A DNA stretch of 64,000 nucleotides from Scenedesmus sp. PABB004 (Eukaryota). Below the pieces are notes generated by a model. The model searched no databases. It was given only the letters and a program-made list of their open reading frames with translations, and was not told the origin of the DNA. Of the stretch, positions 4,282-62,600 are shown piece after piece; the stretch's first letter is position 1; each line of letters begins with the position of its first letter. The stretch covers positions 124,001 through 188,000 of the forward strand of contig JABVCE010000026.1 in the NCBI GenBank assembly GCA_014905635.1, read 5' to 3'. A program made the translations under genes and the position numbers.

Positions 4282-5551
4282 TCAGAACTCGAGGTCGGTC
4301 TCGAAGCTGCACGCGACGCGCGGCACGGGCTGGCTGGGGCTCTTGAGCGCCACGAGCTTGACCGCCTTGTACGCGTACTCGAGGCTGAGGTCGTCGGTCT
4401 TCAGGTTCCACCCAAACTTGTACTTGCCGCCGTGCAGCGGCCGGCTGACCGCAAGGCTCGGCGCCTTGCGCACGAGGTTGTAGCTCGGCTCGTACGTCCA
4501 CGGGCCGTCGCTCAGCGCGATCTTGGCGGCCGTGACCTGCGCGGGCACGCGCGGAGAGGGAGCGGCGCGCGGCGCGGGCGTGAGCGGCGCGGCGCGGCGC
4601 GCCCGCGGCCCCGGTCCCGCGCGCCACACGCCGCCCCCGCTGGCCCCCGCTGGCGCCGCGCCGCCCCCGCCCCGCTGGCCCCCGCCCCGCTGGCCCCCGC
4701 ACCGCCGGCCCCCGCCGCCCCCGCGCGCCGCGCCGCGCCTGCTTGTCTGTGAAGGCGACCGTGGCCTTCTTGTTAGGCGCGAGCGCGCTGATGACCTCGC
4801 CCATGACGCCGCGCGACTTGGTGAGGTAATTGAGCTTCAGCGTGCACTTCTTGCCCCCGACCTTGCGGTCGTGCGTGAGGCCGAGCTTGCTCGCCTTGCT
4901 CTGGATGTTGTGGCTGATGGAGAGCTTGGTGTCGCTGCGCGCCTGCGGGGCCGGCGAGAGGGGCGGGGGAGCGCGGCGCGCGGGGGAGCGCGGGGCGCGT
5001 GGGCGCGCGGCGACCCGCCGGCGCGGGCGCGGCGCCGCTGTCATCCCTGCTGCGCCTGCTGCCCCTGCTGCGCCTGCTGCGCCTGCTGCGCCCGCTGCCG
5101 GCGCCGCCCGCGCCGCGCCGCGCCGCGCTGGGCCCGACCTGCACGTCGGCCGAGAGCACAAGCCCCGGGATGGACTTGATCTTGCGGACGGTGTTGTCCT
5201 GCGAAGGGCGCCGGCGGCGCGCTGAGCAGCAGCGGGCGCGGCCGGCCGCCCCCGGGCTGCGCGGCGCGCCGCGTCGGCGGCGCAAGCAGCGGGCGCGGAC
5301 CGCCGCCGCCCGCCGCGCCGCGCCGGGGCCCCGCGGCGGGCCGCTGGCGCGCCCGATTGGGCGGCGGGGGTGCTGTGCGCCCGGGATTGGGGTCGCACCG
5401 AGAAGCCGACGCCCAGGGTGACCTTCTTGCCCATCTTTTGCTTGACGTTGAAGTCAGCGGCGCCGCTGGGGCTGTGGGCGAACTTCCAGCCGTCGTCCTT
5501 CTTCTCCACCAGCGTCAGGCTCGCCTTGGGCGTGGCCTTGCGGTTCGACAT
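4282..5551 (-). CDS. Lys-rich beta-barrel, plastid outer envelope pore OEP24-like (4 exons)
   Basis: Spliced product MSNRKATPKASLTLVEKKDDGWKF...GFS|DNTVRKIK...VQ|ARSDTKLSISHN...TDKQ|VTAAKIAL...WTYEPSYNLV...ACSFETDLEF*. Alternating amphipathic beta-strands and a terminal Phe; third intron is GC-AG (donor 4738). Family assignment is by recall only. Confidence 0.55.
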
Positions 5552-6139
5552 CGCGGCTGCGGCGAGAACGGCCCGGGTGCGGCGTGGGTGATTCGGGGCA
5601 CGGAGCGGTCCGCTGCGGGCGCGGAGCGGGGGGCGGGGGACGGGCGGTGCGCGAGTGGAGGCGTGCGCGGATCGCCCAGGAGGCGCGCGGCTGCGCCGGC
5701 GCGCCGGCGGCGCCGCGCCAGGGCCCGGCCGCCGCTGGGCCCCGCGCCCAGTTGGCACGCGCGCCGGCGGGTCGCCGCGCAGCGCCAGGGCCGCCGGCGG
5801 CCGCTCCGCGCGGCGGAGCTGCTGCCGTCATCGTCGCAGGGCGCTGCCACCGCGCGCGCAGCCCACACAGCGCGACGCAACTGGGCGCGTTGCACTGGCG
5901 ATCCGCCGCAGCGTGCGACCACGCACGCGGCCGCGCCATGGCAATGCCGCGAGCACCGACGCGCGGCAAAGCGCAAACCAACAACACCGGAACCAAGGTC
6001 CCACGGCTGCCCCATGCAGCCCCTGCTGCCGCGCACGCCGCGACGCCGGGCGGCACGCGCCGCCGCGTGCCCTCACGCCGCCTGCCCTGGGTTGACGAAC
6101 AGGCCCACTGGTGAGCAGAGGGCGGCGGCAGGAGCGGCG

Positions 6140-8203
6140 TCAGCACGGCGCCAGCGTGGGCCGCGGGCCCTGGCCTGGCGGCGCGGGACGCCCCGCCGCG
6201 CGACCGGCCGCCCCGGCTGCGCGCGCTGTGCCGCGCCCACCGTGCACGTGGTCGTGCACCGTCACGTCCAGCAGCACGCCGACAGCGGGCGCCTCGGCCG
6301 CGTGGCGGCGGCGTCGGGACCCGTATTTGGCGGCGCCGCCGGCGCAGGGGCTCGCGGCTGCGACGGACGGCACCTCGGCGCCGCCGCCGCCGCGACTGCC
6401 CCCGCCGACCGGCTGCTGCTGCTGCTGCTGCTGCTGTCCCGGCTGCCCCGGCTGCGCCTGCCCCTGCTGTGCCTGCTCCTCGCCCTGCTGCTGCCCCTGC
6501 TGCTCGTCGTCCCCCTCGCTGCTGCTGTCGCTGCAGTCGTCCAGCTGGAACGAGGCGACCTGGCCGCCGTTGCTCGCGCCGTTGCTCGCGCCGTTGGCGC
6601 CGCCCCCCTGCGTGCCGGCGCCGGCGCCGCCAGCGCTGCTGCCGGGGCGGTTCTCGGCCGACACCGTGCTGTGCCCGCGCTCGGCAGCGATGGCCGCAAT
6701 GACTGCGTCCAGGCGGCCGTGGTCCACGGCGCCCCCGCCCTCTCCGGCGGCGACGTACTGCGCGCGGCGGCCGGCGCGCGGCGGGGCGTGGGCGGCGGGC
6801 GGGCCGCTCTCTCGCGCCGCGGCGAGAGAGCGGGCGCGCCGCTGGGGCGCGGCGCGCGGGGCGCGGCGCGCGGGGCCACGCACGCGGTCGACGATGCCCA
6901 GGATGTCCTCCACCAGGCGCTGGATGGTGTTGAGGCTCACGCGGCGCAGCAGGCCGCCGAGCACGGGGAGGTGCGCGAAGAAGGAGGGCACGCCTGGGGC
7001 GCGCCAGCGCGGCGCCGGGTGGGCGGCCGGCGCGCGCGGCGCCGGGTGGCGCAGCGCGCGGCGCGGCGCGCGCGCGCCGCGCCGCGCCGGCGCACCCTTG
7101 GGCAGCACGTCCTGCTGCAGCACGGCATGGCAGCCCACGACGCGGCCGGCCGCGTCCCGCTTGGGCCGCAGCGCCCAGCTCCCGTGAAAGCGTGAGAGCA
7201 GGTCCTGCGTGTGCTCGCCGCGCAGCCGCCGGCGCCGCCGGCGTGGGCGGACGCTGGCAGCCGCGCGCCCCACAGACGCGGGCGCGGGCCCCCGCTGGCA
7301 GCCGCGCCCCGCGGCGGGCCCACCGAGCGCAGGAGGTCAAACTCGGTGCGCAGGCACGCGGGGTCGCGCGCGTCCTCTGTCACGTTGAGGTACGTCTTGA
7401 ACACGCGCCGCACCCACATCACGTGCAGCTGCGCCGCGGCGGCGGCGGCGGCGGCGGCGCAGCGCCGGCGCGTCTTGCCGCGGCGGCGCTGCCCAGGCGC
7501 AGGCGCGTGCACGCCCCAGGGGTCAGGGGCTTGAGGGCGGCGCGGCGCGGGCCGCACCTCGCCGCACTGCTCCACCTCGACGACCTTGAGCCCCGGCGCC
7601 TCCTGCCTGACGCGGCGGTAGCCGACGCACTTGATGTCGCGGAACGCGCCCGCGTTGTCTGCGGCGGCCGCCGCAGCGGCGGGCGCGCGAGGGGGCTCGG
7701 CCGGCGGCGGTCGCAGACCACGGGCGCGCGCAGCGCGCCGCGCCTGGGTGGCAGAAGATCGCAAAGATCACGTCGGGCGGCACGTTGAAGGTGCACTCGA
7801 GCTCGATGTGGCAGAGGTAGCCGGCCGCATTCGACACCTTGGCCGCGCGAGCCGCGGGCGCGCGGCGCGGCGCACGCAGCAGCGCGGCGGCGGCGGCGGC
7901 GGCCTCTCAACGCGCGGCCTGCGCGTCCCGGTGCCATCACGGGCATATATGGAGCGTGCAACCAGCCCTCGCACGCGCGTGCTGGCCGCCCCGCTCGGGA
8001 GAGGCCGAGGCAGCAGCAGCCCGCCCGCCCGCAGCGCCCCCGCCCGCCCGAGCAGCGCCCCTGCCCACCGCGGCGGTGTAGTTTGACTTTCGCGCCACGC
8101 TCGTCCCCTGCTGGCCGTCGGCGAGCTCCGGCAGGGGCTGAATCGTGTCCTCGCTGCCGGGCGCCCGCGCCTCGCTGCCGGTCGGAGCCTGCGCCGACGC
8201 CAT
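6140..8203 (-). CDS. START/SRPBCC (polyketide cyclase/lipid transport) superfamily protein, ~7 exons
   Basis: Exons give ...CHIELECTFNVPPDVIFAIFCHP|DNAGAFRDIK...VEVEQCGE|LHVMWVRRVFKTYLNVTED...FDLLRS|DLLSRFHGSWALRP...LQQDVLPK|GVPSFF..., followed by a low-complexity tail. Start and end are approximate. Confidence 0.65.
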
Positions 8204-11618: not shown

Positions 11619-11660
<42 letters not shown>

Positions 11661-14029
11661 CACACGCGCCTGCCGCTGCTGCCGCCGCCGTGGCGCGCGC
11701 GCAGGTCTGGTTCCTGGGCAAGGCCGACGTGGCCAAGGTGCGCGGCAACCCGCACCTCGCCAAGACCAACTACGGCTACGACGACGAGCGCGGCGACTAC
11801 GTGGCGGTGCCGCGCGACCACATCGCGTACCGCTACGAGGTCGCCGGCGTGCTCGGCAAGGGCAGCTTCGGCCAGGTCGGTCGGCCCGCGCGTGTGTGGC
11901 CGGGGCGGGGCCGGCGGCGGCGGCGGCGCTGGCGCGCGCTCGCCCCTGCCGACGCCTGGCCGCCTGCGCGCTCTCCTTCCTCGCGCGCGCGCGCAGGTGC
12001 TCAAGGTGCTCGACTACAAGACCGGCACCTACAAGGCGCTCAAGATCATCCGCAACAAGAAGCGCTTCCACCACCAGGCGCGCGCCCCTGCGCCGCGCCT
12101 GCGCCGGCCGCGGCCCGCCGCCCCGCGCCGGCTGCCGCGCTGACCCGCCCCGCCGCTCATGCGGCCGCCGCCGCCGCCGCGCAGGCCCAGGTGGAGCTCA
12201 AGGTGCTGGAGCACCTGCGCGCGAACGACGCCGGCGACACCAACCACGTCATCCACATCCAGGAGCACTTTACGTTCCGCAGCCACCTCTGCATCACGTT
12301 TGAGCTGCTCGGGTCCAACCTCTACGAGTTCATCAAGGCCAACAACTTTGCCGGCCTCGACCTCACGCTCATACACCGCTTCGCCGGCCAGATGCTCGTC
12401 GCGCTGCGGTGCGCGCCGCGCGGCCGCCGCGCGGCCGCCGCGCGCCGCCGCGGGCGCGGCCGCGCCGCGCTGACCAGCCGCTGACCGCGCGCTGACCGCC
12501 GCCGCCGCCGCCCGGCCGCCCGCGCCGCCCGCGCGCGCAGCTTCCTGAGCGACCACCGCCTGATCCACTGCGACCTGAAGCCGGAGAACGTGCTGCTGCT
12601 GGGGCACCGGCGCCCGGGCGTCAAGGTCATTGACTTTGGCAGCTCCTGCTTTGCGGGCGAGCAGCTCTACACGTACGTGCAGTCGCGCTTCTACCGCTCG
12701 CCCGAGGTCATCCTGGGGCTGCCGTACGGCGTGGAGATCGACATGTGGAGCTTTGGCTGCATCCTCGCGGAGCTCTTCATGGGCTACCCCCTCTTCCCCG
12801 GCGAGGACGAGACGGAGCAGCTCCTGTGCATCATGGAGGCCATGGGCCCGCCGCCGCCGCGCCTGCTCGAGGCGGCGAGCCGGCGCAAGACCTTTTTCGA
12901 CGCGTCCGGCGCGCCGACGGTCGTGCCCAACTCGCGCGGCAAGATCCGCACGCCCGGCAGCAAGTCGCTGTGGGGCGTGCTGCGCTGCCAGGACGCGGGC
13001 TTCGTCGACCTGCTCGAGCGCTGCCTGCGCTGGGACCCGGCGGAGCGGCTCACGCCGGCGCAGGCGGCCGCGCACCCCTGGATGGTGGAGCGGGCTGCCG
13101 CCGCCGCCGCCGCCGCCGCCGCGGCGGGCAGCCCCGCGGCGAGCCACCGCGGCCGCGGCCGCACCGACCAGGCGCACGCGTCGCCGGGCAGGCTGCAGCC
13201 GACGAGCGTCATCGCGGCGGCGCTGAGCGCGAGCGGGCCGGTCGGCAAGGCGGCCGCGCGGGCGATGGGCCTGGGCGCCGGCGGCGGGCGCGACGGCGGC
13301 GGCCCCAGCGCGCTGTGCAGCGGCGAGGCCGGCGCCGGCGCCGGCTTTGGCGGCGGCCTCGGCGCGCCCGCGGCGCACGCGGCCGGCGCCGGCGGCTGGG
13401 CGGCCGACGCGGGCGGCGCCGCGGGCAGCTCGCGCATGCCGCGCGCGCTGCACGGCGGCGGCGCGCCCGACACGGTGCAGAGCGGCTTTGACTGCACGCC
13501 GCGCCAGCTCAGCCAGACGGCGGCCGCGGCGCTGTCGGCCGCGGCGCCCGCGCTCGGCGCCGGCGGCGGCGGCCGGCCTGCGCCCGGCGGCGGCGGCGGC
13601 GGAGGCTTCACGCCGCGCTCGATGGAGACCAACGCGCCCGCCCTGCCGGGGCGGGGCTACGGCGCCAAGCAGGTCGCGGTGGGCGTGCTCGCGGCCGGCG
13701 GCGCGGCGCAGGTGGTGGTGGCGCAGCGCAGCAGCGGCGGCGGGCGCGACGTGCACGGCCCCGACCAGGCGGCGCTCGTGGCGGCGAGCAACGCGCTCAA
13801 GGTGCAGGCCGGCCCGGGAGCGTCGCTGGCGACGAAGCAGGCCGCGGCGGCGGCGCTGCAGGCACAGCTGGGCGCCGGCGGCCACCACCACGCCGCCGTC
13901 GGGTACCTGAGCGGCTCCGGCGGCGGCGGCGGCGGCGGCGCGCTGGGCCAGGCGCAGCAGCTGCTCCTCCTCCAGCTCCAGCAGCAACAGCAGCTGGGCG
14001 GCGGCGCGCTGCCGCGGCTGCAGAGGTGA
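10904..14029 (+). CDS. Class-2 DYRK family dual-specificity kinase, 6 exons
   Basis: NAPA-like LTPFEQSEILQY, DH box YGYDDERGDY, GKGSFGQV, HCDLKPEN, DFGSSC, activation loop YTYVQSRFYRSPEVIL. Introns at 10961-11122, 11570-11704, 11876-11996, 12078-12184 (GC-AG) and 12409-12540. Confidence 0.92.
11618..11659 (+). repeat. (CAG)n microsatellite in DYRK intron 2
   Basis: About 14 tandem CAG units, intronic. Confidence 0.9.
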
Positions 14030-15164: not shown

Positions 15165-16818
15165 ATGGCGCGCGCCCCGATGCGCGTGCTGATCACGGGC
15201 GCCGCAGGTGCGGCGCCGCTTCCGCGTCCCAGCCTGCGCGTCGCGGCGCGCTGGCAGCTGAGCTTGCTCGCGTTCCCCCGCAGGCCAGATCGGGTACGCG
15301 CTGGTGGCCATGGTCGCGGGCGGGCAGATGCTCGGCCCCGACCAGCCCGTCGTGCTGCACCTGCTCGACATCGAGCCCGCCAAGACCGCGCTGGAGGGCG
15401 TGCGCATGGAGCTGCTGGACGCCGCGTTTCCGCTGCTCGTCGGTGCGACGCGCCGCCGCCGCGGCCGGCGGCAGCGCGCGGCGCTGCTGTTCGCCCGGCG
15501 AGCCGCCCGCCGCGCCCTTCCTCACGCACCTCCCTGCCCCGCCCCGCCCCTGCGCCGCGCAGACGTGGTCGCGACGACCGACCTCGCCGCCGCGTGCGCG
15601 GGCGTGGACGTCGCGGTCATGGTCGGCGGCTTCCCCCGCAAGGCGGGCATGGAGCGCAAGGACGTGATGTCCAAGAATGTCTCCATTTACGCCTCCCAGG
15701 CGCGCGCGCTCGAGGCGCACGCGAGCAAGGACGTCAAGGTGTGGCGGCGGCGGCCAGGGCAGGGCGCCCGCGGCCGCGGCGCGCCGGCCGGCGCGCGGGG
15801 CGCGCGCCGCGGCGGCGGGCGGCGCGCCGGCGCGGGCGCCGCCGGCTCTCACGTCGTCGACCCCTCGGGCGCAGGTCCTGGTCGTGGCCAACCCCGCCAA
15901 CACCAACGCGCTGATGCTGCACGAGGCCGCGCCCGGCATCACGGCGGCCAACATCACCGCGCTCACGCGGCTCGACCACAACCGCGCGCTCGCGCAGGTC
16001 GCGGAGCGCGCGGGCGTGCGCTCCACGGCCGTCTCCAACGTCATCATCTGGGGCAACCACTCCTCCACGCAGGCGCGCGGCGGACGGGCGGATGCGGCGG
16101 CGCCACATGGCACGCCGCAGCGCAGGGCGCAGCGGGGGCGCGCGCGCGCGCCCCCGCCTGCCCCGCCGCTGATGCCCGACTCCCCCACACCCACACCCAC
16201 ACCCACAACCTCACCCACACCCTCACACCGCACACGCACCCACCGCACGCCGCGCTCGCAGTACCCGGACGTCAACCACGGCACCATCGACGGCAAGCCC
16301 ATCCGGGAGGTGCTCTCCGCCGACGGCGCGTGGCTGGACGGCGAGTTTGTGGAGACCGTGCAGCAGCGCGGCGCGGCGATCATCAAGGCGCGGGGCCTGT
16401 CGTCGGCGTTGAGCGCGGCGAGCAGCGCGTGCAACCACGTGCGCGACTGGCTGCGCGGCACGCCCGAGGGCACCTGGGTGAGCATGGGCGTCATCAGCGA
16501 CGGCAGCTACGGCGCGCCGCCGGGCGTGGTCTTCTCCTTCCCCGTCACCTGCCGCGACGGCGCGTGGAGCATCGTGCAGGCGCGCCCCTGCGCGCGCGCG
16601 GGGCGCGGGGGCGCGCGGGGCGCGCGGGCGCGGGGGCGAGGGGCTCGCGCGCGGCGTGCAGGCGCGGCGGCGGCGGGCTGACGGGCGCGCTGCCGTGCGC
16701 GCGCGGGGGGGCGCAGGGCCTGACCATCGACGAGCGCAGCGCGGCCAAGCTCAAGGCGACGTCGGAGGAGCTGCTGGAGGAGCGCGACCTCGCGCGCGAG
16801 TGCATCGCCGCGCTGTGA
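15165..16818 (+). CDS. MDH: Cytosolic-type NAD malate dehydrogenase, 6 exons
   Basis: [96 protein letters not shown] introns at 16073-16261 and 16580-16716. Confidence 0.95.
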
Positions 16819-17462: not shown

Positions 17463-18884
17463 ATGGCGCGGGCAGCGCGGCGGCGGTCGTCTGCGGCCTG
17501 GCTGGCGTGCCTACTCGTGACCGCGCTGGCCGCGCCCGGCGGTGCGCGTGCGGCGCGCGCCAGGCGTAACCCCCGGCCCGCCGGCGCGCGCGCGCCCAAC
17601 CGCCCGCCCGCCCGCCCGCCGCCGCGCCCCAGGCGCCGCTGCGCGCCGCCTCGGTGCGGCGTCGGCGCCCTGCGCCGGCGCGTCGTCGGCGTCGGAGCTG
17701 CTGACCAACGGCTTCTTCGTCCCCGGGTCACCTGGGCACATGCACAACGTGCTGCTGACGGCGGCGATGTCAAACGATGCCTACCCCTGGGCCCGGCAGT
17801 ACGGCTACGCCATGATTGACGTGGCAGACGGCCTCACCGCACAGCAGGCGCGCGCGCGCGTGTGTGGGTGGGGGGGGGGGCGTGGGAGGAGGGCCGGGCG
17901 GAGAGGAGGGGGCCCCGCACGCGCGGCGCGCGGCCGCCGAGCCCGCGCCGCCGCCGAGGCCGCGCGCCCGCCGCCGCCGCGCGTGCAGACGGCGCGCTTC
18001 CAGGGCCTCTTTGCGGCCAAGTACCGCCGCCTGGGCGCGCGCAGCGTGCGGTTCGTGGACTGGCAGGAGGGGCCGCTCGGCGCGGCGGGCCACGCGGCGG
18101 TGCTGACCACGGGCACCGACGTCTGGGTCATCATCCGGTGAGCGCCGCGCCGCGCCGCGCCGCGCCGCGCCGCGGCGGCTTGCCCCGTGTGTTGAGCGCG
18201 CCGCGCGCCGCCCGCCGCACCCGCCACCACCCTCTCCGCGCCGCCGCCGCCGCGCGCGTGCGCCGCCGCAGCGGCACCGCCGACGTGGGCCAGGTGCGCA
18301 TCAGCGGCGTGTACGAGTCGCGCCCCTGGGCGCTGCCGGGCGGCAGCGGCAGCGTGGGACTGTTCTACCCCCTCCACCGCTCCATGTCCGGCCTCTGGCC
18401 GCGCCTCTCGGCCGCGGTCGCGGCGGCGGTGGCCGAGACGGCGGCGCCGCGCGCCGCGCGCGTCTTCCTCACGGGGCACAGCCTCGGCGCCGCGTCGGCG
18501 TGCCTCGCGGCGCTGCTGTGCCAGCTCGAGCTGGGGCTGACCGTCGGCGGCGTGTGGGCGTTTGACCCGTACAAGGCCGGCCGCGCCGACTGGGTCTCCC
18601 TCTACGACGCCCAGCTCGGCAACGTGACCTGGCTGGTCTGGAACAACCAGGACCCCATCCCACAGCTCCTCGACGCGCCGCCCGCGGCGGCGCGCGGCGG
18701 CGGGTGGGGGCACGTCCCCTCCGACCGGCACTGGATCCGCATCGTCGGCGACGCCTGCCTGCCCGCCGCGGGGACGCGGCTCATGGCGGCCTGCCCGCCC
18801 GAGGTCGACGCCGCCGACGGCGCGGCAGACGGCGTGTGCGCGAGCCCCTTTGGGGACCACCTGGTGCGTCACGCGCGCGCGCGC

Positions 18885-19746: not shown

Positions 19747-22700
19747 ATGGCGCTCTCCAGCCGCGCCCAGCGCGCGCGCGGTGCGTGGAGCCAGCCTGGG
19801 GCGCGGCTGCGGCGGGCCGCTGGGGCCGGGCGCGGCCAGCGGAGTGAGGGCCGCCTGCCGGGGCGCGCCAGGCGGCGAAATCGGGGCCCCTGAAGGCTCA
19901 GCGGCCAGCGCATTAGCTCGCTGGCCGTCATGACCGCGCCCAGCCGCGGCGGCAGGGGCAACGGAGGAGCATTGGGGCGGGGGCGGCCCTTGCATGCCGC
20001 GCTGCTGCTCCCACGCCCACGCCCGGCCGTCCCCGCCCGCCCGCAGGCGCCGCCGCCGCGGGCGCCTCGCGGCAGCAGGTCAAGGTCAACGCCGTGGTGG
20101 CGCCGCCAACCACGTCGCGCTCGCCCGCGAGCACCGGCTCGGTGCGTCGGCAGCAGCGGGCGGGCGGCGCCACGGGCGGCGGCTGCTGCGGCGCCGCCAG
20201 CAGCCGCAGCGCCAGGCTCGGCGCCTTTAGGATTCTGCAGGCGCAGCAGCAGCAGCAGCAGGCGCTGCCGGGCGCCGGGCGCCGGGCGCCGGACGCCGCT
20301 CGCCGCCGCGACCGGGCGCTGCGGCCCCGCGGACTCTTCCCACGCCCCCGGCCCCGGTCGCGTCGCGGCGCGCAGGTCAAGAGCCCCATGACCATGACCG
20401 AGAAGATCCTGGCCAAGCACAGCGATAACGCGGCGGTCGTGCCGGGGCAAAACATCTGGACGCGCGTCGACAAGCTCATGACCCACGACGTCTGCGGCCC
20501 CGGCACGTTCGGCATCTTCCAGAAGGAGTTTGGCCAGGACGCGCAGGCGCGGGCCGCGGGCGGGCGCGGGCGCACGGGCGGGCGCGGGCGCGCGACGGGC
20601 GCGGGCGCCGGCGGCGGGCGGTTCTGCGGGCGCCGGCGGCGGCGCGCGGCGCGCGGCGGCGCCGACGTGCGCCCGCGCCGCGCCGGGCCCACACAGGTGT
20701 GGGACAACGAGCGCGTGGTGCTCATCCCGGACCACTACATCTTCACCAGCGACCCGCGCGCCAACCGCAACGTCGACATCCTGCGGTGCGCGCCGCGCTC
20801 TGCGTCGTCGCGCCGCCGCGCCGGCCCCGACCCGTGCGCCGCGCCGGCCCTGACCCGCACCGCTCTCTCGCTCACGCGCGTCGCCCTCTCTCTCACTCTC
20901 ACGCGCTGCGCAGCGAGATGGCGGCCAAGTACAACATCAAGTACTTTTATGACATCCAGGACCGCTCCGACTTCAAGGCCAACCCCGACTACAAGGGCGT
21001 CTGCCACGTCGCGCTCGCGCAGGAGGGGCACTGCCGCCCCGGCGAGGTGCTGTTCGGCACCGACAGCCACACGTGCAACGCGGGCGCGTTTGGCCAGTTT
21101 GCCACGGGCGTGGGCAACACCGACGCCGGGTTCATCCTTGGCACCGGCAAGCTGCTCATCAAGGTGCGGGCCGCGCATGCCGGCGGCCACCGCGCTGCGG
21201 CCCCCGGCGCCGCCGCCAGCGCGCCGCGCAGCGCCTGGCGGACCCCGCGCGCGCCGCGCGCCGCGCGCCGACGCGCCGCCGCGCGCCGCACCCGCGCGCC
21301 GGCCAGGTTCCGCCGACGATGCGCTTTGTGCTGGACGGCGAGATGCCCGAGTATCTGCTGGCCAAGGACCTCATCCTCCAGGTGGGGCGGGGGGGGGGGG
21401 GGGGGGCGGGCGCAGGCGCGGCGCGGGCAGCGACGGCCCGCGCGGCCGCCGCCGCGCGCGGGCCGCGGCCGGGCGCCTGCGCCGCCGCCAACGCGCGCGC
21501 GCGCGCGCGGCCACGCGCGGCGCAGATCATCGGCGAGATCAGCGTCGCGGGCGCGACGTACAAGGCGATGGAGTTTGTGGGCAGCGCGGTGGAGGGCATG
21601 AACATGGACGAGCGCATGACCGTGTGCAACATGGTGGTCGAGGCCGGCGGCAAGAACGGCGTCATCGCGCCCGACGCGACGACGTTTGACTACGTCGACG
21701 CCCGCGCCGGCGGCGCGGCGTACGAGCCCGAGTACAGCGACGGCGCCGCGGCCTTCTGCGCCGACTACAAGTGAGGGAGACACCGCGGCGCGGCGGCGCG
21801 GTTGAGCGGGACGGCGGCGCGGCGGCGCGGTCGAGGGCCCAGGGCCCAGGGCGGAGCAGCGGCGCGCGGGCGGGCGTGTGCGGGGGCAGCGTGCGCGATG
21901 CGTGACGCGTGTGCCCGGGCGCGGCGCCGTGTGATTGGTGGTGGGCGCGCGTGATGACGCGTGCGGCGCGCCGTGGCGCCGTGCGGGGCCACACCTCACC
22001 CGCCGCCGCCGCGCGCGCGCGCGCGCGTGCCCAGGTGGGACGTGTCCAAGCTGGAGCCGCTCGTCGCCGCGCCGCACTCGCCGGACAACCGCAAGACCGC
22101 GCGCGAGTGCTCCGACGTCAAGATCGACCGCGTCTACATCGGCTCGTGCACCGGTGCGCCCGGGCACACCGGCGGCGGCGTGCAGGGGCAGCGCGGCGGG
22201 GGCGGCGCGGCGGGGCCGTCTCTGAGGGGCCCGCGCCGCGCGGCGCGCAAGGGGGCGGCGAGGCGTGCGCGCAAGCCCGCCAGCCCGCCAGCGTGCGAGC
22301 GCCCTGCCGCCGCCGCCGCCGCCGCCGCCGCCCCCTCCTCCCGTCCGCGCCGCCGCCAGGCGGCAAGACCGAGGACTTCCTGTCTGCCGCGAAGCTCTTC
22401 CACCGCGCGGGGCGGCAGGTCAAGGTGCCCACCTACCTCGTGCCAGCGACGCAAAAGGCGCGCTGCGCCGCGCCGCGCCGCGCCGCGCCGCGCCGCGCCG
22501 CGCCGCGCGCCCGCGCGCCGCCCTTGCTGCCGCCGCGCCGCCTGCGTACGCGCGCGGCGCCCCGCGCTCACGGCCCGCGCCGCGCGCCGCGCGCGCCGCG
22601 CGCAGGTGTGGGCGGATGTGTACACGCTGCCCGTGCCGGGCTGTGGCGGCAAGACGGCGGCCGAGATCTTTGAGGCCGCCGGCTGCACGACGCCGGCGGC

Positions 22701-39600: not shown

Positions 39601-39974
39601 TACGCTGCCTCCAGGCGCGCGCGCGCGCGACGCGGCGCCCGCGCCGCAGCGCCCGCGCCGTCCCGTCCGCCCTCATGCTCCCCCCCCCCCTCGCGCTCCC
39701 CCCTCGCGCTCCCCCCTCACGCTCCCTCCCTCACGCTCCCTCGCGCGCTGCTCCCTCACTGCCCGTCGCTCTGCCCGTCGCCCACGCGCCGCAGAACCAC
39801 CTTGACGAGGAGGACATGTCGACCGAGTGCAAGGCCGAGGTGGTGCGCGACCAGAACCGCATGGCACAGGTGCGCGCCCCCTCGCCCGCGCCCGCCGCCC
39901 GCCCACGCCCGCACGCCACACACCCGCGCCCGCACGCCCGCACCCGCTCCCCCACACGCCACACCTAACGCCCC

Positions 39975-41317: not shown

Positions 41318-41397
<80 letters not shown>

Positions 41398-42449
41398 ACG
41401 CACGCGCGCCGCCCGCGCCGCCCCCTGGCCACTGCGGCGCCTCACCCGCGCCGCCCCCTCGCTCCCTCGCACCCGCCGCGCCTCACCACCCCTCACCGCC
41501 GCCGCGCGTCGCCCCCGCCGCCAGGTATGACATCGGCGTGCTGACCGGCTGCGGGGCCGACATCGACCGCCTGTGCGCCGAGGAGAAGACGCGGCTGCGC
41601 GGCAACGCGACCGTGCTCAAGTGCCTGGTCGCCAACTTTGACAAGACCGGTGCGCCGCGGGGGCGACGGCGCGGCAGGAGCGCCGCTGGGCCCTCGGGCG
41701 CCCCGCGCCCCGCGCCCCCGGGCGCGGCCGCCCGCGCCGACCTGCGCACCCACCCACCTGCCGCCCGCGCCCGCCCGCGCCCGCCCGGCCGCCCGCGTGC
41801 GCGCCAGGCGAGGCGTGCCAGGCTGAGATGAGCCGCGCGGTGCGCTTTGCGCTGTGGGACTACCAGAGCGGCCAGGCGCTCACGCAGGTGCGACGCGCCG
41901 GCCGCGGCGGCAGCGGCGGCGCGCGCGGGCGGGCGGGCGCCGCGCCCGGCGGGGCGCTCCCCCCCCCCCCCCCCCCCTCACACACGCACCACCCCGCCGC
42001 CGCGGTCAGGTGTGCGACGGCGACGTTGCGTCGCTGTGCCCCAAGGGCGCGCGGTCGCGCCCGGGCGGCGTGTTCACGATCGGCGCGGTCGGGCGCTGCC
42101 TGAGCAAGGCGCTGGTGCAGGGCCGGGGCTCGCGGCGGGGTGCCGCGGGCTCGTGCTCGTCGCGGCGCCCAAGGACGCGCGGCTGTACCTCACATACCCC
42201 GAGTCGACGAGCGCGCTGGTGGCCAAGGTCGCGGAGCTTCAGCGCGCGGCGGGGCTCGAGTCGGTGCTGGTCGACCCCTACCGCCGCGACGGCGGGTCGG
42301 TCACCGTCACGGGGTGGGTCGCGCTCGCGTGCATACTCAGCCTGGTGCTCGTGAGCGTGGGCGGGCTCGTCGCGCTCGTGCGGCGCCTCGGCGGCGCGGC
42401 CGCCGGCGAGCGGCCGCACACGCAGTACGTCAAGTCGGGCGACGCGTGA
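36606..42449 (+). CDS. GLG1: Golgi apparatus protein 1 (GLG1/ESL-1/MG-160) homologue with cysteine-rich repeats, ~20 exons; apparent frameshift near 42125
   Basis: Signal peptide, many repeats of the type D(I/Y)RL....ACxxDxxxFCxDVxPGxGRVxxCL, and a C-terminal TM (WVALACILSLVLVSVGGLVALV) with a short tail. 5 of 19 introns are GC-AG. Confidence 0.88.
39971..40067 (+). repeat. poly(C) plus (CA)n microsatellite in a GLG1 intron
   Basis: About 20 C followed by about 38 CA units. Confidence 0.9.
41326..41396 (+). repeat. (CA)n microsatellite in a GLG1 intron
   Basis: About 35 CA units. Confidence 0.9.
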
Positions 42450-45193: not shown

Positions 45194-46225
45194 TCAGTCG
45201 GCGCACGCCAGGCCCTCCGCCTGCATCGCCGCCAGCGCCTGCGATGCCGCGCTCGCCGCCAGCCCCGCGTCGGCGTGCGGCACGGCGCGGATGGCCACCG
45301 CAAACAGGCTGGCGAACAGCGCCCGCACGCCGCGCCCGCTCGCCGCCGACACCTGCGCGCAGGGGGCATTGGCGGCGGCGGCGGCGGCGGCGGCGCGCTC
45401 GGCGCCCAGGCCCGCACAGGCCGGCCGACCGCGCGCGGGGCGGGATCGCGGCGGCGGCGCGCGCCTCAAAGAATGGCAGGCCCCGCGCGGCCGCCCACGC
45501 GCGGCCCTCGGCCTCGCCCACGCGGCGCCCCGGCTGGTCGGTCTTGGTCGCCGCCACAAACGTCGCCTGCGCCGCAGCGGCGGCGGGGCGCGTCGGCGCG
45601 GCGCGGGGCGCCTCTGGGCGCCGCGGCCCGCCCCCGCGCCCGCGCCGCTGCCGCACCATGCCCGGCGGCGCGCCGTGCGCCGCGGCCTCGTCGAGCCAGC
45701 GCGGCAGCGCCTCGAAGCTCGGCCGGCTGCACGCGTCGTAGACCAGCAGCGCCGCCTGGCCGTCGCGGTAAAACTCGGTGCGCACCGCCGCGTACTCGGG
45801 CGGCCCGGCGAGGTCCCACAGGTTCACGCGCACCTGCGCGCCGCGCCGGCGGCGGCGGCGGTGCAGCGGGTGGGCGGGGCGTGCGGGATGTGGCGCACGG
45901 GCCAGCTGGCAGCGGCCCGCGCTGCCGGCGCCGCGCGCTGCCCGACCTCGTGGTCGCCAAAGGGCACGGGCTTGACGCCGTAGTCGACGCCGATGGTGGG
46001 GATGTAGCGGCTGACAAACTTCTCCTCGCAGTACCTGGCGGCGGCGGGGCGGCGGCGACAGCTGATTCGCCGCCTGCAGGCGGCGCCGCGCGCGGCAGCA
46101 GCGTGGCGCTCGAGGAGCGCGGTGCCGCTGGCGCCGCCGCACCGCTTGATGAGGCAGGACTTGCCCACGCCCGTGTCGCCCATGGAGAGGACCTTGAGCC
46201 GCAGCACGCGCCCGCGCGGCCCCAT
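45194..46225 (-). CDS. RJL: RJL-family (RBJ/DNAJC27-like, no J domain) small GTPase, 5 exons
   Basis: LKVLSMGDTGVGKSCLIKR|YCEEKFVSRYIPTIGVDYGVK is the RJL signature; also WDLAGP, VRTEFYRD and E|VSA. GC donor at 45464. Confidence 0.8.
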
Positions 46226-49700: not shown

Positions 49701-52394
49701 CGGGGCAGCCCCCGCAGGGCGAGGTGCTGCTGGACGTCACGTTCAAGGCGTTCGAGGACGACGAGCAGGCGCGCAGGGCGCCGCCGCGCGCAGGGCGCCG
49801 CCGCGCGCAGGGCGCGGCGGCAGCGGCGGCGCGGCAGCAGCAGGGCGCGGCGGGCGCGCCGCCTGACGCGCCGCGCACCGCCTGGCGCGCCGCGCACCCC
49901 TGCCTGACAGGACTCTGGGTACCGCGAGGCGCAGGAGTATGCGCGCGCCGTGGCGGCGCAGAGCGAGGCGATCACCGACATCCGCAGTGCCGCGGCGGCG
50001 AGCAGCCGCGCCGCGGTCGCCGCGTCGGCGGCGATCAGCGCCATTGCCATGACCAAGGCGGCCGCGGCGCGCGCGGCGGCGCGCGCGGCGCAGGCCGCCA
50101 AGGACGCCGGCGCGGCGGCGCTCAGCACGGCGGCCGCGGTCGCGCAGCAGGGACAGCAGGCCGCGCAGGGGCAGGGGCAGCAGCAGCAGCAGCAGCAGCA
50201 GTCGCAGCAGCAGCAGCCGGAGGCCGGCGCCGACGAGCAGGCGGCGCCGCTGGCGCTGCCGCCGCCGGGCGGCTCGGCGGCATCGCAGGAGCTGCTCGCG
50301 CGCCGGCGCGCAGCCGAGGCGGCGGGCGGCAACGGCGCGGCCAAGCGCCGCGCGGCCGGCGGCGACCGCGACGGCGACGGCGGCGGCGGCGGGCCACCCG
50401 CGGGCGGCAACGGCGCCGCGCTGGCCTCGCTCGACGCGTCCGAAGCCGAGGCCGCCGCGGCGGTCAAGGCGCGTGAGGAGGCGCTGATTGAAGCGCTGGA
50501 GGCGCGCATGGCGTTCCGCGTGCGCAGCACCAGCGGCACGCCCAAGCCGCCGGCCCCGCCCGCGGCGCCCGGCGCCGCGCCCGACGAGGCCGCGCCGGCG
50601 CGCGGCGCCAGCCCCGAGCTCGGCGGCGCGGCGCCGGCGCTCGACGTGACCGCGACGCTGCCGGCGGACGGGCTGGAGAGCGACAGCAGCGGCGAGGAGG
50701 ACGACGGCCGCGCGGTCGAGCGCGCGCACCGGGCGGTGGCGGACATCCTCGAGAAGTGAGCTGAAGGGCGGCGGCCGGCGCGCGCACGGGGGAGCGAGGG
50801 GGCGGGCAGGCACACGTCGCGGGGCCGCTGCGCGCCGCGCCCGGCAGCGGCAGCAGGGGGCCGCGGCAGCTGGCTGAGCGCCGCCCGCGCCCGCAGGTCG
50901 AAGCGCATGGAGGCGGCCGTGGCGGAGCTCGCCGCGCTCACCGCCGGCAGCGCGACCGAGGCGGCGCTGCAGCAGGGCGCCGTCAAGGCCGCGCAGGACA
51001 CGGTCGCGGCGCTGTCGGCGCTGGCGCCCAAGGAGGCGGCCACGGTGTCGAGCGGCAGCGGCGGCGGCGGCGGCGGCACGGCCGTCAGGGCGGCGGCGGG
51101 CGCGGTCGGCACCGCGACCATCGCGCCGCCGCCCGCGCCGGGCGGCGGCCACGGTCACGGCGCCGGCAACGGCAGCAGCGGCAGCGGCAGCGGCAGCAGC
51201 TTTGCGAGCGGCTACAGCATATGGGGCGAGGAGCTGCTGCCCGGCGGCGGCGCCGACGCCAGCGAGCCCGGCGCCGGCGCGGGCGCGCCGCCCGAGCAGC
51301 ACGCGGCGGCGGCGGTGGCGGCGGCGCGCGAGGCGGCGGCGCTGCTGCAGCAGCTGCCGGCGGACGCGGGCGCGGCGCCAATGCCGGCCATCGTCGTGCG
51401 GGTGCGGGACGGCGAGCACGTGCTGTCCGAGGTCGTCGGCGGCGGGCACGGGCACGCGCGCGACACGGGCGTGCAGACGGACGGCGGCGGCCGCGCCGAC
51501 GCCGCGGTGCAGGCGGCGCTCACCGACGGGCGGCCCGCGGCGGCGGCCGAGGCCGCGGCCGCGGCCGCGGCGGCCGGCGAGGAGCGGCCGTGGTGGGCGC
51601 CGGTCGTGTTCTGGCTGCCCGGCCAGCGGCCCGGCGGCGCGCCGGCCGACGCGGCCGCGGGCGGCGCCGGCGCCGCCGGCGCGGGCGCGCGCGAGGCGGA
51701 GCCTGAGCCGGCGCCGCGCGAGGGCGAGGGCGCCGACGACGCCGCCGCCGCGTCGGCGGCGCGGCCGTGGTGGGCGCCGCTCGCCGACAGCGGCCTCGTG
51801 CGCGGCCTGCTGGGCGCCGCGCCGCGCGCCGGCGGCGCCGAGCCCGGCGCCGCCGCGCCCGGCGCGGCCGCGCCGAGCGGCGACGAGCCGGCCGCCGACG
51901 CCGCGCCGGCGGCGGCGCCGCCGCGGCGCGCGTGGTGGGAGGCGCTGCTGCCGCGGCGCGACGCGCCGCCGTCGGGCGACGACGACGACGCCGCTGCCGG
52001 CGCGGCGCCGGGGTCGGGGCCCGCCGGCGGCGGCGGCGCGCCGATGGGCGAGATCGTGATCCCCCCGGACCTGCCGCTCGAGGAGATTGCGCGCGAGGTG
52101 GCCAAGATCAAGGAGGACGCGTGGCGCAGCAAGGAGGAGCGGCTGGAGAACCTGTGGGCCAAGACGGTCGAGCGCAACGACCGCAGCTGGCTCATGCTCA
52201 TCGTGTTCCTCCTCGCCGTCGCGGTGGGGCTGCTCGCGGTCGTCGCGTACCGCATCGCCGCGATGCAGGGCGGCGGCGACGCGGACGCCGCCGCCGCGGG
52301 CGCCGCCGCCGCGACGGCGGGGCAGCTGCCGCTGATGCTGCTCGGCCTCGCGGCCGCGGCCGCGGCGGCGCTCACGGGCGGCGCGGAGCTGTGA
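46762..52394 (+). CDS. SMP + C2 domain lipid-transfer protein, plant NTMC2T5/tricalbin-like, 9 exons
   Basis: Transit-like N-terminus and a TM, then ESVEWVNMCFRKIWRVYQRGLESWITDLLQPVFD (SMP) and GELSVMLREGRDL...NPWVRLVLGEQ...PVWNQEVQFLV (C2). Long low-complexity region and C-terminal TM (WLMLIVFLLAVAVGLLAVVAY). Confidence 0.82.
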
Positions 52395-52800: not shown

Positions 52801-55625
<2,825 letters not shown>

Positions 55626-57858: not shown

Positions 57859-59203
57859 ATGCTGCTGCGCCGCCCCGCTGCCGCTGCTGCCGCGGCACCG
57901 CAGGTGCGGCGAGCTCCCACGGCCCTGCGGCCGCCGGCCTCGCGCCAGCCGGCCGCCGTGGCACCAGCGCGACCGCCGCCGCCGCCGCCGCCGCCGTGCC
58001 CCGCCCGCCCCGCAGCGGCCGGCGCGCCGCGGCGCCGCGCTCGCTGCTCCCGCGCCCGCCGGCCCCCGCCCCCGCGCGGGCGTGGTGGCGCGCGCCAACC
58101 CGTTCGAGGACGCCCTCAACAGGTGCCCTGCGCGCGCCCCGCCCGCCCACGCGCCGCCCGTGCCCCGCTCACGCCCGCGCGCCGCCCACCCACACCCGCG
58201 CGCCCACGCGGCGCAGCCTCACCGTCGCGCTGAAGAACAGCCCCGTCAACGCGGGCAAGAAGGCGCTCGCGCGCGCGCAGGCGGGCGACTACGACGGCGC
58301 CGCGGTGCGGGCCAGGATCGAAGGCCTCATCCGGGACAACCAGGCGCGCCCACGCCCAGCCTGGGACGCCGTCCCACCACGCGCTGCGCGGCGCGGCCCT
58401 GCTCTGCCGCCGCGGGGGGGGGGGGGGGGGGGCGTCGCTGGCGCCCCGCGCTGCGCCGCCGCGCGCGCGCCCGCGGCGGCGCCGGCCCCCAGCACCCGGC
58501 GCCGCCGGCGCCGCCGCAGGTGCTGGTGTTCAGCTGGTCGGGCTGCCCTTTCTGCAAGAAGGCCAAGGCCCTGCTGGCCGACGTCGGCGCGCAGGTGCGC
58601 CGACGCGGCGCTGGGGCGGGGGCTGCCCGCGCTGCCCCCGCCCGCCCGCCCGCGCCGGCGGCTGGCGGCGGGGCCGGCGAGCGGAGCGGAGCGACGGCGC
58701 GGCGCGTGCCCCGCCCTGTCGCGCCTGCCTGCCGCTGTCACAGTTCACCGCGCTCGAGCTCGACACCATGGGCGCCGAGGGCAAGGCCATCCGCGCGGAG
58801 CTGGCCGAGGTGGGGGCGCGCGGCGCGGCGCGGCCGGCCCAGCCAGCGGCGCGGCCGGGCCGGCGCACGCGCAGCCCGCGCCCGCACGCACGCCGGGCCG
58901 CGCCGTGCCGCGCCGCGCCGCGTGTCTCGCAGATGACCGACCGCACGAGCGTGCCCAACATCTGGATCGCCGGGCGCAACGTGGGCGGCTGCAACGACGG
59001 TGCGCGGCCCGCCGGGCGGCCGGCCGCCCGGCGGGGCGCGCGCGGGCCGGCGCGGCGGGCGCGGGCGCGGGCCGGCCTGCAGCTGCCTCGTGACGCCCCC
59101 TTGCCGTGCCGCTCCCCCTGCTGCAGGCCCCGGGGTGATGACGCTTCACTCCAAGGGCGAGCTGCTGCCGCTGCTCAAGGCCGCCGGCGCGCTGGCGGCC
59201 TGA
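57859..59203 (+). CDS. Plastid-targeted class I (CPFC) glutaredoxin, 7 exons
   Basis: Transit peptide, VLVFSWSGCPFCKKAKALL, TSVPNIWIAG, VGGCND. GC donor at 58344. Confidence 0.9.
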
Positions 59204-59446: not shown

Positions 59447-59614
59447 TCGCGCCCTCCTCCCCATCTTCCCCGCCGGCAGTGCGTGCATGCTGGAGGTCGA
59501 TGCGCGATGCACAGTGCCCGCGCCGCCGCCGCCAGCGGTTCGAGACCCCCTCCCTCCCTCCCCCCCCCCTCCCCGCCCGGTTGGGTCGCAGCGCTTGAGT
59601 TCACTGCCCGTCGC

Positions 59615-62600
59615 TCACGCCTTGGCATCCACGGCGCCCTTGGCGTCCGCGGCGTCGGCGTCGCGGGGCGCCTTGGCGTCATCGTCGTCCGGGCGCGCCG
59701 CCGGCGCGCGCGCGGCCGCGGCCCCGCCGCCAGGCGGCGACGGCGGCGGCGGCGGCGGCCCGCCCGCCGGCGCGGCGCGACCGAGCGCGGCGGTGCGCGC
59801 CGCGGCGCTCGCGCGCGCCGCCGCGAGCGCGTGCGCCGCCGCCTTGCTCGCGCCGCCCTTGCGGCGCGGCGCGCCGGGCGCACGCCGGCGGCGGCCGCCG
59901 CCGGCGGGCGTGTCGGTGGGGAAGCCGTCGCGGCTCTCGGCGGGGCCCTTGGGCCGCCGCGCCGCGGCTGCGCGCGCGGCCGCGACGCGCGCGAGCAGCT
60001 CGCGCAGCAGGCCCAGCACGGTCCAGCCCGCCCACGCGACAAAGACCAGGTGCGCCGCGAGCACGAGCCCGCCCACGGCCACGCGGTACGCGCTGGCGCC
60101 GGCGCCGCCGCCGGGCGCGGCGTCGCCGGCCGCGCCGGGCGCCACAAAGGTGAGCCCCGCGTACGCGGTGACGCTGAGGCAGGCGAGCGCGCCGAGCGCG
60201 AGCCGCTGCAGCCGCGCCGCGCGGTACGGGCGCGCGAGGATGTGGGCGGCGAGCATCGCGGACAGCAGGAAACTCAGCAGCAGGCCCGCGTGCCAGGGGC
60301 CGAGGTTGGGCCCGAAGACCTGCACCAGCACGAGCGCCACGAGCTGCGCCGCGACGACCGCGTCCCACGCCGCCCAGCGCGGGCGGTAGAGGCGCAGCAG
60401 CACGCCGCCCGCGCCCGCCGGCGCGCCGCCGCCGCCGCCGCCGTCGCGCGCCGCCGCCGCGGCGGCACGGCGCGCGCGCAGCGCCGCGGCTGCGACGCAT
60501 GCCGGCACGCCGACGCAGACGAGCAGCGCGAGCGGCAGGCCCAGCCCGAGCGCCCAGCGCAGGTGCCAGCCCGCCCAGCAGGCTTGGGCCACGTCGGGCG
60601 ACCAGTACCCGCCGGCCGCGTCCGCGGTCGCGTAGCTCGCGTACGGCCCCCGCCCCGGCACGTCGAGGCGCACGCAGCCAAACCAGGCGAGCGAGAGGCG
60701 CACCAGGCTGGGATAGAAAAACGCACCAGTCACGAGCGCCGCGAGCGGCGCGCGCGCCGCGACGCCCGCGGCGACGCCCGGCGCGCCGGCGGGCGCGCGG
60801 CGGCGCCGCGCGGCGCGCGCGACGCGCGCGCCGGCCAGCGCGGCGGCGTCGAGCGCGAGCACCGCGGCGAGCGCGGCCGGTGGCGCGGCGAGGTAGGCGA
60901 GCTCCCGCGCGACCGCGCGCGGCACGGCGAGCGGCGCGCCCGCGGCGAGGCAGTCGAGGCTGAGCAGGCTGGAGCTGCCGGCGGAGAAGAGCCAGGCCAG
61001 CGCGGAGAGCGGGGCGTGCAGCGGGGAGGGCCAGTCGATGGGCATCGCGCCGAGGATGACGAGGCACTGCACATACACCAGGAGGACCTTCAGCACGTCG
61101 GACGCGCGCGGCTCGCGCCGCGACGCGCGGCGCGCCGCCCCGCCGGCGCCGGCGCCGGCGCCGGCGCCGGCGGCGGGCGCCGCGGCGTCGAGCCACGCGA
61201 CGTGCGCCGCGAGCGCGATGAGCGCCGTCAGCGCGGCAAAGGCGAGCGCGTAGAGCGCGGCCGACGCGCCCGCGCCGAGGCAGCGGCCGCAGCGGAACGG
61301 CGCGCGCAGGCCCCAGCCCGGCGCGCAGCCGCCGCACACGCGGCCGACGTAGCCCTCGCCGCACTGCCAGTCCATGGTGGCGCCGCCGCCGAGCGCCGCG
61401 GCGGCGCCGGCGTCCAGCAGCTGCGCCTGCTGCTGCTGCGGGACCTCCGGCGGCGGCGCCGCCGCCGCCGCGGCCGCCAGCCGCCGCAGCAGCCGCCGCG
61501 CCGGCGCGCGCGCCGGCGGCGCTGCCGCAAGCAGCGCGCGCGCCTTGCCGGCCGCGTCGCTGGCGAGCAGCTCGCTGACGACGCCGCCGCCACCGCCGCC
61601 GGCGGCCCGCGCCGCCGGCGCGCCGGCCCAGCCCGCGTCGAGCGGGCGTGGCGCGGCGCCGGCGCGGCCGCCGCCCGCCTGGCTGCACGCGGCGGGGTTG
61701 GGGCAGCGGTGGATCTGCACGCTCCGGGGGGTGCTGTGCCAGAAGCCCGGCCGCGGCACGACGCTCGCGCCGCCGGCGCACGTCGCGGCGGGCGGGCAGA
61801 TGTCGCAGGAGGCGTTGCCCGGGTTGAAGCTGTAGAGGCTGGCCCCGCACGCCTGGCACCACGCGCCCGCGCGCACCTCGCCCGGCGCGCACTCGGAGAG
61901 GAGCGAGAGGTCGGGGCCGAACGACGCGGCGTTGCCGCGCGCGGCGGCGCGCGCGCGCCCCGCGTCGAGCGACACGGCGGCCGAGTCGAGGTAGATCCCG
62001 CCGCCGGCGACGAGGGCGGTGTTGTTGGTGATCGCCGCGCCGGGCGACAGCTCGAGCGTCGCGTTGCACGACGGGCAGCCCTGGCTGATCGCGACGCCGC
62101 CGCCCTGGGCCGCCGCGTTGCGCGTGACGCGCACGCCGCCGCCCAGCACGGTCACGCCCGACGCGAGCGAGAGCCCGCCGCCGGTCGAGGCCGCGTTGTC
62201 GGCCACGAGGCAGGCGCCCGCCAGCTCCAGCCGGAAGCCGCGCCCCGCCGCGCCGCTCGACGCGGCCGCCAGCAGCCCGCCGCCCTGCGCCGCCCTGCGC
62301 GCGGCGGCGGCGCGCGGCGGCGGCGGCGGCGGCGCGCGCGCGCGTCTGCAGCCCGCGCCCGCGTCTGCAGCCCGCGCCCGCGCCCTGCGGCACACCGCGG
62401 CAGACCGCGCCCCGCGGCGCCCCCCCCCCCCCCCCCCCGCCGCCGCGCCGGCGCACCGGTTGCGCGTGATGTTTACGTCGCGCAGCGTCGCGTTGAAGCC
62501 GCCCTCCATGTAGAGCCCGCCGCCGCCGCCGAGCACCTCGTGCCCCGTCAGGCTCACGCCCGCCAGCAGGGCGTCCATGTCGCCGACGAGCGCGAGCCCG

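Follow-up and report, generated by a model that had tools for sequence, protein, structure and literature searches.

In a 64,000-nucleotide (nt) stretch of Scenedesmus sp. PABB004 (GenBank assembly GCA_014905635.1, contig JABVCE010000026.1, positions 124,001 to 188,000 of the forward strand; hereafter the window), about one intron in every four to five begins with GC instead of GT, and every GC donor in the curated set directly follows an exonic AG. This set contains 24 GC and 78 GT introns (24 of 102, 23.5%). An earlier note on the same DNA had put the share at about one fifth (24 of some 112 introns, 21%); both figures lie far above the norm of about 1%. The introns are probably of the ordinary U2 type, with GC-ward pressure having turned roughly one fifth to one quarter of the donors from GT to GC, and with the changed donors surviving only where the remaining donor positions compensate for the lost contact. 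All results come from this one window, and splicing was read from sequence and protein homology.

The window has a G+C content of 79.4%, with each 4-kb block between 77% and 82%. A three-base periodicity scan revealed numerous short exons on both strands. G+C at third codon positions (GC3) is 97.1%, with 0.92% A over 9,023 such positions, and intron interiors are 87% G+C and 5.8% T. The nearest relatives of the window proteins are Scenedesmus, Tetradesmus and Monoraphidium records, which marks the DNA as nuclear and as coming from a chlorophycean green alga of the Sphaeropleales kind, and there are about five introns per gene. Genes were predicted with a dynamic-programming gene finder in which codon log-odds were trained on periodic segments, AG acceptors were obligatory, GT and GC donors had equal prior weight, and the signal matrices were re-estimated over six rounds. 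The raw output, in which adjacent genes were merged, had 141 introns (98 GT and 43 GC). Forty-one of these (22 GT, 19 GC) were discarded by hand, namely those that bridged genes, had a neighboring exon of just 1-30 nt, fell within in-frame stretches of low complexity or disagreed with homologues. Two GT donors (37109 and 44527) were added, as homologues or the model of the earlier note required, and the acceptors belonging to donors 5138 and 37932 were corrected. The curated list thus reflects in part our judgement over which finder introns to drop. In the Golgi-apparatus-protein-1-like gene, where every junction was checked, 5 of 18 introns are GC-AG. Among the 55 homology-verified junctions the number is 17, in a subset that is biased upward because the searches favored genes with GC donors.

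Inspection of the 24 GC donors listed in the earlier note found AG/GC (the slash marks the exon-intron boundary) at each coordinate on the expected strand, 20 on the plus strand and 4 on the minus strand (4738, 7743, 29395 and 45464). All 24 introns have CAG as their 3' end, and the independent gene finder recovered every one of the donors. The junctions were then assessed by asking if the translations of both exons abut, residue for residue, in an intron-less sequence; in orthologue alignments, a junction was considered gap-free when no gap occurred within 6 residues of it. In 17 of the 24 cases the exons do abut to the residue, be it in a family profile, orthologues or an intron-less homologue (Table 1). 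On this homology the GC donors at the 17 sites are real, and the continuity of the proteins suggests that removal of the GC-AG introns yields the correct mature product there. At the other seven (7743, 17848, 31331, 33141, 45464, 49769 and 58344), the GC donor ranks top among 57-139 frame-consistent, stop-free donor/acceptor pairs each. Even when the +2 term is not scored, the strongest GT rival trails it by 7 to 24 log-odds units. U12-type introns are marked by an extended donor word after +2. Such a word is absent in all 24, which begin with GCGCG, GCGAG, GCACG or GCAGA. Their GC start, AG end and stronger remaining donor positions would place the 24 introns in the ordinary U2-type GC-AG class.

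The dependence on the exonic AG is strict. AG occupies positions -2/-1 in 24 of 24 GC donors versus 40 of 78 GT donors (Fisher p = 2e-6), and the rule holds in the homology-verified subset (17 of 17 versus 24 of 38, p = 0.0026). The GT donors cited in the earlier note as lacking AG read as it described (GAC/GT at 23627, TAC/GT at 44527 and CCG/GT at 39077). Position -3 grades the tolerance of C at +2. Donors after CAG number 19 GC and 21 GT (GC share 48%), those after AAG or GAG 4 GC and 19 GT (17%), those after TAG 1 GC and 0 GT, and those without AG 0 GC and 38 GT (0%); over all donors, with or without AG, C occupies -3 in 19 of 24 GC and 37 of 78 GT cases. On the intron side, GYGCGC, named earlier as the dominant donor, describes both classes in the curated set. 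G is present at +3 in 72 of 78 GT and 22 of 24 GC donors, C at +4 in 56 and 21, G at +5 in 76 and 23, and C at +6 in 42 and 18, respectively. The combination GCG at +3 to +5 is found in 20 of 24 GC versus 53 of 78 GT donors.

The exonic AG is maintained against an extreme codon bias, a sign of selection for it. Position -2 of a phase-1 GC intron coincides with a third codon position, and all four such introns have A there (ACA, ATA and the like), compared to 0.92% A at third positions overall; at 25020, for example, this A completes the Ile codon ATA. All four phase-2 GC introns interrupt a codon that starts with AG, while elsewhere AGG and AGA together account for 8 of 574 Arg codons. Six of these eight phase-1 and phase-2 introns are homology-verified, and therefore the signal does not stem from the choice of donors.

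The earlier note had proposed that T at +2 is dispensable whenever AG precedes it. This is partly supported: GC donors are confined to exons ending in AG, but T has not become dispensable. In the 64 donors preceded by AG, +2 is C in 24 and T in 40 (37.5% C), whereas the intron composition predicts 89% C (binomial P = 1e-22), and T is still favored in this context. A rough mutation-selection estimate, assuming equilibrium, would put scaled selection for T at about 2.6 in donors with AG and above 5.7 in those lacking it. Donor words were also counted on the sense strand of the 35.2 kb of gene spans. AGGTGCG is used as a donor in 22 of 26 occurrences and AGGCGCG in 20 of 32, the latter word occurring 14 times on the antisense strand. 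For the full word, the C form CAGGCGCG serves as a donor at 15 of its 19 sites and the T form CAGGTGCG at 13 of 16, and only at this length do the two forms predict a donor about equally well. Unspliced donor-like words were found within homology-verified exons, CAG/GCGCGCGC at 15700 (MDH) and AAG/GTGCGCGG at 11738 (DYRK), indicating that the donor word alone is insufficient to define an intron.

The origin of the GC donors could be approached at 3 of the 24 introns, where orthologous positions were compared to distinguish conversion of GT to GC from intron gain. For the LeuC intron at 22458, 25 proteins with both flanking motifs were available, 19 of them contiguous and 6 derived from read-through open reading frames of relatives. 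These six carry an insertion of 22-54 residues precisely at the junction, and the insertion opens with Val (GTN) in 6 of 6, while the window has GCG (Ala) at the same place. The Val-start insertions imply an intron with a GT donor in the genomic DNA of the relatives, which points to an old intron, formerly GT, that was converted to GC. The other two introns, 4738 and 12078, were compared with a metagenome contig, L001 (20,159 nt, 71.7% GC), whose region 8165-20067 includes homologues of four window genes (the gene at 4282-5556 on the minus strand, DYRK, MDH and PP2C) in a similar neighborhood. Eight intron positions of the window are empty in L001, including those of GC introns 4738 and 12078, and GT intron 5398 is shared. 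The source of L001 is probably a relative poorer in introns. This contig was the only one used among 80 matched loci, most of the others being taken as distant PP2C relatives of low identity. The comparison supports conversion at 22458; at the two positions without an intron in L001, either gain or loss of the intron may have occurred.

How the GC donors could have spread can be outlined as follows. Strong GC-ward substitution pressure would shift donors from GT to GC. The U-to-C change at +2 would cost one contact, and its tolerance would be proportional to the remaining pairing (C at -3, A at -2, G at -1 and G at +5). GC would then survive together with an AG at the exon end, CAG being best, followed by the intron consensus of the lineage, G-Y-G-C-G, and selection would retain T at all other donors. 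The textbook donor consensus is GTRAGT. The lineage consensus mismatches the textbook U1 pairing at +4 and +6, so the exon side would weigh more, and this would account for an AG rule without exceptions. The link to GC pressure made in the earlier note is plausible in view of the G+C content of intron interiors and third codon positions, with the cause itself, like the direction of the change and an unmodified spliceosome, being something we infer.

Alternatively, recognition of the 5' splice site might have been rewired, as also suggested in the earlier note, with an altered U1 5' end, U6, U1C or Prp8 making C and U at +2 nearly equivalent. The similar use of CAGGCGCG and CAGGTGCG fits this proposal, as does the G-Y-G-C-G-C consensus, which in GT and GC donors alike departs from GTRAGT at +4 and +6. 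We consider the proposal unlikely, because T is over-represented relative to the neutral expectation, none of the 38 donors without AG is GC, and standard U1 pairing would itself lead one to expect a dependence on positions -3 to -1, according to the sections consulted of PMC2490688. In addition, other GC-rich algae have 14-56% GC-AG introns and no altered machinery was proposed in the portions of those reports considered here. The usual compensation of GC donors and precedents explained by composition mean that rewired machinery is not required. A search with Rfam at gathering scores detected no small nuclear RNA (snRNA) genes in the window or in L001, and at E <= 0.1 none in the window, where just a chance-level match to a microRNA family appeared at 11630-11694. 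The more specific version, in which the spliceosome treats CAG/GC and CAG/GU as near-equivalent through a putative change in the U1 base opposite +2 or in a protein contact, is doubtful to the same degree. If it were true, GC-AG would be a second canonical donor class instead of a tolerated defect, and in very GC-rich Sphaeropleales the code for the 5' splice site would have evolved together with genome composition.

Two other explanations have less in their favor. GC donors might be weak donors kept for alternative or regulated splicing, as proposed in some animal genes, and a link between GC donors and alternative splicing has been reported elsewhere (PMC2490688, in the part consulted). This is quite improbable for the window, since GC donors are located in GAPDH, MDH, glutamine synthetase and LeuC, where skipping or retention would destroy a conserved fold, and a share of about 24% far exceeds any plausible regulated subset. 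It could also be argued that AG/GC strings were picked by chance in 79%-GC DNA, the true donor being a nearby GT or there being no intron at all. The risk is real, for the finder called 19 further GC donors, four of which are contradicted by homologues. As a general explanation, an artefact of this kind is scarcely credible: the 17 sites fixed to the residue already largely refute it, the sense-strand excess of AGGCGCG goes against it, 20 of the 32 sense occurrences being listed donors, and none of the seven unpinned sites has a GT alternative inside 7 units.

Several points weigh against the preferred reading, that of U2-type introns whose donors were converted under GC pressure. The unmodified spliceosome is an assumption, and the near-equal use of CAGGCGCG and CAGGTGCG reveals more tolerance than the textbook picture. 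The direction of change was documented at one intron alone, 22458, and the empty positions in L001 raise the prospect that 4738 and 12078 are recent gains of introns that already had a GC donor. Splicing was deduced through protein homology and coding potential rather than transcripts, coding potential being the sole basis at the seven unpinned sites, and one 64-kb window may not represent the genome. The AG rule itself may have an exception in the 2OG-oxygenase intron (44527-44643, plus strand), where CCG/GC at 44548 outscores TAC/GT at 44527 by about 3.9 units in the finder. Were 44548 a GC donor without AG, the rule would hold in 24 of 25. The reading with 44527 yields ..FLIY/LNEGF..GG, which we take to be a motif of the 2OG-oxygenase family; the fifth residue of the downstream exon falls at position 43 of the Pfam profile in a weak match (E = 0.21), and a PDB search with the exon produced no usable match.

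Table 1. GC-AG introns of the window, with the evidence for each junction. A slash marks the junction, in letters as well as between the residue or position numbers that flank it; "model only" denotes sites supported by coding potential, with ranks among candidate donor/acceptor pairs and log-odds units from the gene finder.
Intron	Strand	Gene (junction)	Donor, length, phase	Junction evidence
4537..4738	-	Small unnamed gene	CAG/GCGCGG, 202 nt	Exons abut in intron-less L001 homologue
7659..7743	-		CAG/GCGCGG, 85 nt, phase 1	Model only, best of 60; GT rival 22.8 units lower
12078..12184	+	DYRK kinase (..RFHHQ/AQVELK..)		DYRK2 PDB chain 51/52; DYRK1B 75/76; L001 17163/17164
16073..16261	+	Cytosolic-type MDH (..HSSTQ/YPDV..)		TIGR01758 186/187; Pfam Ldh_1_C 35/36
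16580..16716	+	MDH (..WSIVQ/GLTID..)		TIGR01758 296/297; downstream exon match weak, E = 0.017
17848..17988	+	Class-3 lipase		Model only, best of 107; GT rival 10 units lower
20547..20696	+	LeuC-type isopropylmalate dehydratase (..GQDAQ/VWDNE..)		P0286 gap-free, 7 of 12 identities
22458..22605	+	LeuC (..PATQK/VWADV..)		19 spliced homologues contiguous
24353..24482	+	PQQ-type sugar dehydrogenase (..LFFT/DNGRD..)	CAG/GCAGAC, phase 1	10 of 11 homologues gap-free
25020..25152	+	PQQ-type sugar dehydrogenase (..RAMKI/GYRVM..)	TAG/GCGCGG, phase 1	11 of 11 homologues gap-free
29227..29395	-	Type II glutamine synthetase (..RCIF-R-DPFR..)	Phase 2	NF041605 60, split codon 61, 62
31331..31439	+	EAF6/NuA4-like	CAG/GCACGC	Model only
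33141..33316	+	PP2C, low-complexity N-terminus	CAG/GCGAGC	Model only
33877..34009	+	PP2C (..VPNLIQ/LPAVLT..)		5 of 5 orthologues gap-free
38461..38614	+	Golgi-apparatus-protein-1-like	Phase 2	12 of 13 orthologues gap-free
38768..38964	+	Golgi-apparatus-protein-1-like	CAG/GCGAGC, phase 2	13 of 13 orthologues gap-free
39312..39494	+	Golgi-apparatus-protein-1-like (..LFDHE/VKMAED..)	GAG/GCGCGC	13 of 13 orthologues gap-free
39615..39794	+	Golgi-apparatus-protein-1-like (..VIRCLQ/NHLDEE..)		13 of 13 orthologues gap-free
41273..41524	+	Golgi-apparatus-protein-1-like (..KNDY-R-YDIGV..)	Phase 2	13 of 13 orthologues gap-free
45353..45464	-	Rab/RBJ-like GTPase	GAG/GCGCGC	Model only
49769..49910	+	SMP/C2 gene, past C2 domain		Model only; GT rival 24 units lower
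54031..54135	+	Plastid-type GAPDH		NF005641 41/42 contiguous
54640..54762	+	GAPDH (..APFVK/VLDEK..)	AAG/GCGCGG	NF005641 164/165 contiguous
58344..58519	+	Intron directly before glutaredoxin domain		Model only; GT rival 39 nt upstream, 7.2 units lower

The strength of the individual junctions in Table 1 varies. The MDH exons occupy positions 121-186, 187-296 and 297-322 of TIGR01758. Of the 11 sequences aligned at 20547, two are gap-free, and of these P0286 alone is clearly homologous, P0316 having just 1 identity; P0322 aligns with one gap, and 6 of the 11 sequences fall short of the region. The homologues aligned to the PQQ-type sugar dehydrogenase are bacterial and intron-less for the most part. 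The 18 junctions of the Golgi-apparatus-protein-1-like gene were aligned against 13 orthologues using a corrected gene model, and at 39312 the expected V-x-x-x-ED follows directly after the upstream motif in 41 of the 44 listed motif-scan occurrences. As for the unpinned sites, the exon downstream of 31331 matches positions 23-42 of Pfam NuA4 weakly (E = 0.15), this being the sole match in the short-exon Pfam scan at E <= 10, and a PDB search with both EAF6/NuA4-like exons gave no usable match. The junction at 33141 sits in non-conserved low complexity, where the PP2C orthologue alignment does not pin it. The exon upstream of 45464 ends at residue 162 of PDB 6jmg_A in a weak match (E = 0.25), and a PDB search with the downstream exon of this Rab/RBJ-like gene found no match. 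At 58344, the match to the domain profile opens with the very first downstream-exon residue and hence does not pin the junction.

Some observations were made along the same genes. The N-terminus of PP2C (33317-33876, plus strand) is one long open frame with Q, H, A and G runs, and its orthologues likewise carry long unalignable N-terminal stretches; an in-frame 267-nt GC "intron" that the finder cut there is wrong. In the Golgi-apparatus-protein-1-like alignment, P0002, an annotated Scenedesmus orthologue, departs from nine others exactly at the 38461 junction, with five residues missing and different flanks, which may reflect a mis-annotated intron. Further downstream, at 42115-42125, a 1-nt shift in a G run divides a conserved 20-residue segment (VQ..GLAAGCRGLVLVAAPK) between two reading frames; it is either an assembly indel or a genuine frameshift. 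The finder masked the shift with a 59-nt GT-AG intron, which removes the conserved segment. The fourth GAPDH intron (55020-55095, plus strand) opens T-rich with a (CT)n run, unlike the 87%-GC intron mean.

The 19 additional GC donors called by the finder were not accepted. Those at 5055 (contradicted by the L001 homologue), 33514 (by PP2C orthologues), and 37102 and 37328 (by homologues) were rejected on direct evidence, and the remaining 15 are mostly gene-bridging or beside exons of 1-30 nt. Seven of the 19 are still candidates, five of them after AG (971, 20262, 34782, 43535 and 61543) and two not (44548 and 8638). The one at 61543 lies in a gene for a repeat-rich membrane protein (61445-61543, minus strand), where AAG/GCGCGCGC pairs in frame with a GAG acceptor that lies 99 nt downstream. 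Either this is a 25th GC-AG intron or the stretch is coding sequence of low complexity.

With GC donors in one of every four to five introns and about five introns per gene, most multi-exon genes of such a genome would carry at least one GC-AG intron. Annotation pipelines limited to GT-AG would introduce frame shifts, skip exons or read through into introns. The window also amounts to a clean natural experiment, with graded outcomes, in the amount of exonic pairing that lets a donor forgo U at +2, one that could be scaled genome-wide and across the GC range of the Sphaeropleales, whose genomes have about 56% to 72.4% GC (PMC12571836, PMC7354681). A term search of these two papers, in the text available, returned no discussion of splice donors. 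We found no literature report of a GC-AG excess in green algae, although the per-species tables of PMC6310983 may hold algal figures. The shift in donors is already known in other GC-rich algae, and the window extends to green algae the pattern described, in the sections consulted, for haptophytes and pelagophytes.

One close precedent is the haptophyte Emiliania huxleyi, in which 135 of 241 curated junctions (56%) are GC-AG, with about 60% in expressed sequence tags and RNA-seq, a feature that the authors blame on a GC content of 65% (PMC4028052). Acceptors are AG in 241 of 241 cases, and GT-only gene predictors mis-annotate this genome. Like the window, E. huxleyi combines a GC-rich algal nuclear genome with a large GC-donor share and an invariant AG acceptor, but its share is 56-64% at 65% GC, compared to about 24% at 79% GC here, and the dependence on an exonic AG, strict in the window, is not described in the relevant passages of that paper. 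The pelagophytes Aureococcus and Pelagomonas have 14-17% GC-AG introns, ascribed to GC content, and a low-GC relative has 0.32% (bioRxiv 10.1101/2024.10.30.620910). Their share is comparable and similarly tied to high genome GC. However, they are stramenopiles whose genes have few introns, predicted gene models underlie the figures, and donor context is not analyzed in the passage concerned. The mean over 121 plant genomes is 1.2% (PMC6310983), which makes GC-AG introns about twenty-fold commoner in the window. The U2-type GC-AG introns of plants and animals share with those described here the GC at +1/+2, the AG 3' end and, to judge from 22458, probably the conversion of GT to GC at old positions, and their GC donors hew closer to (A/C)AG/GT(A/G)AGT, the sequence that pairs with the U1 5' end (PMC2490688, as far as the source was available). 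They differ in the intron consensus that compensates for the lost contact, which is RAG at +3 to +5 in plants and animals and GCG in the window.

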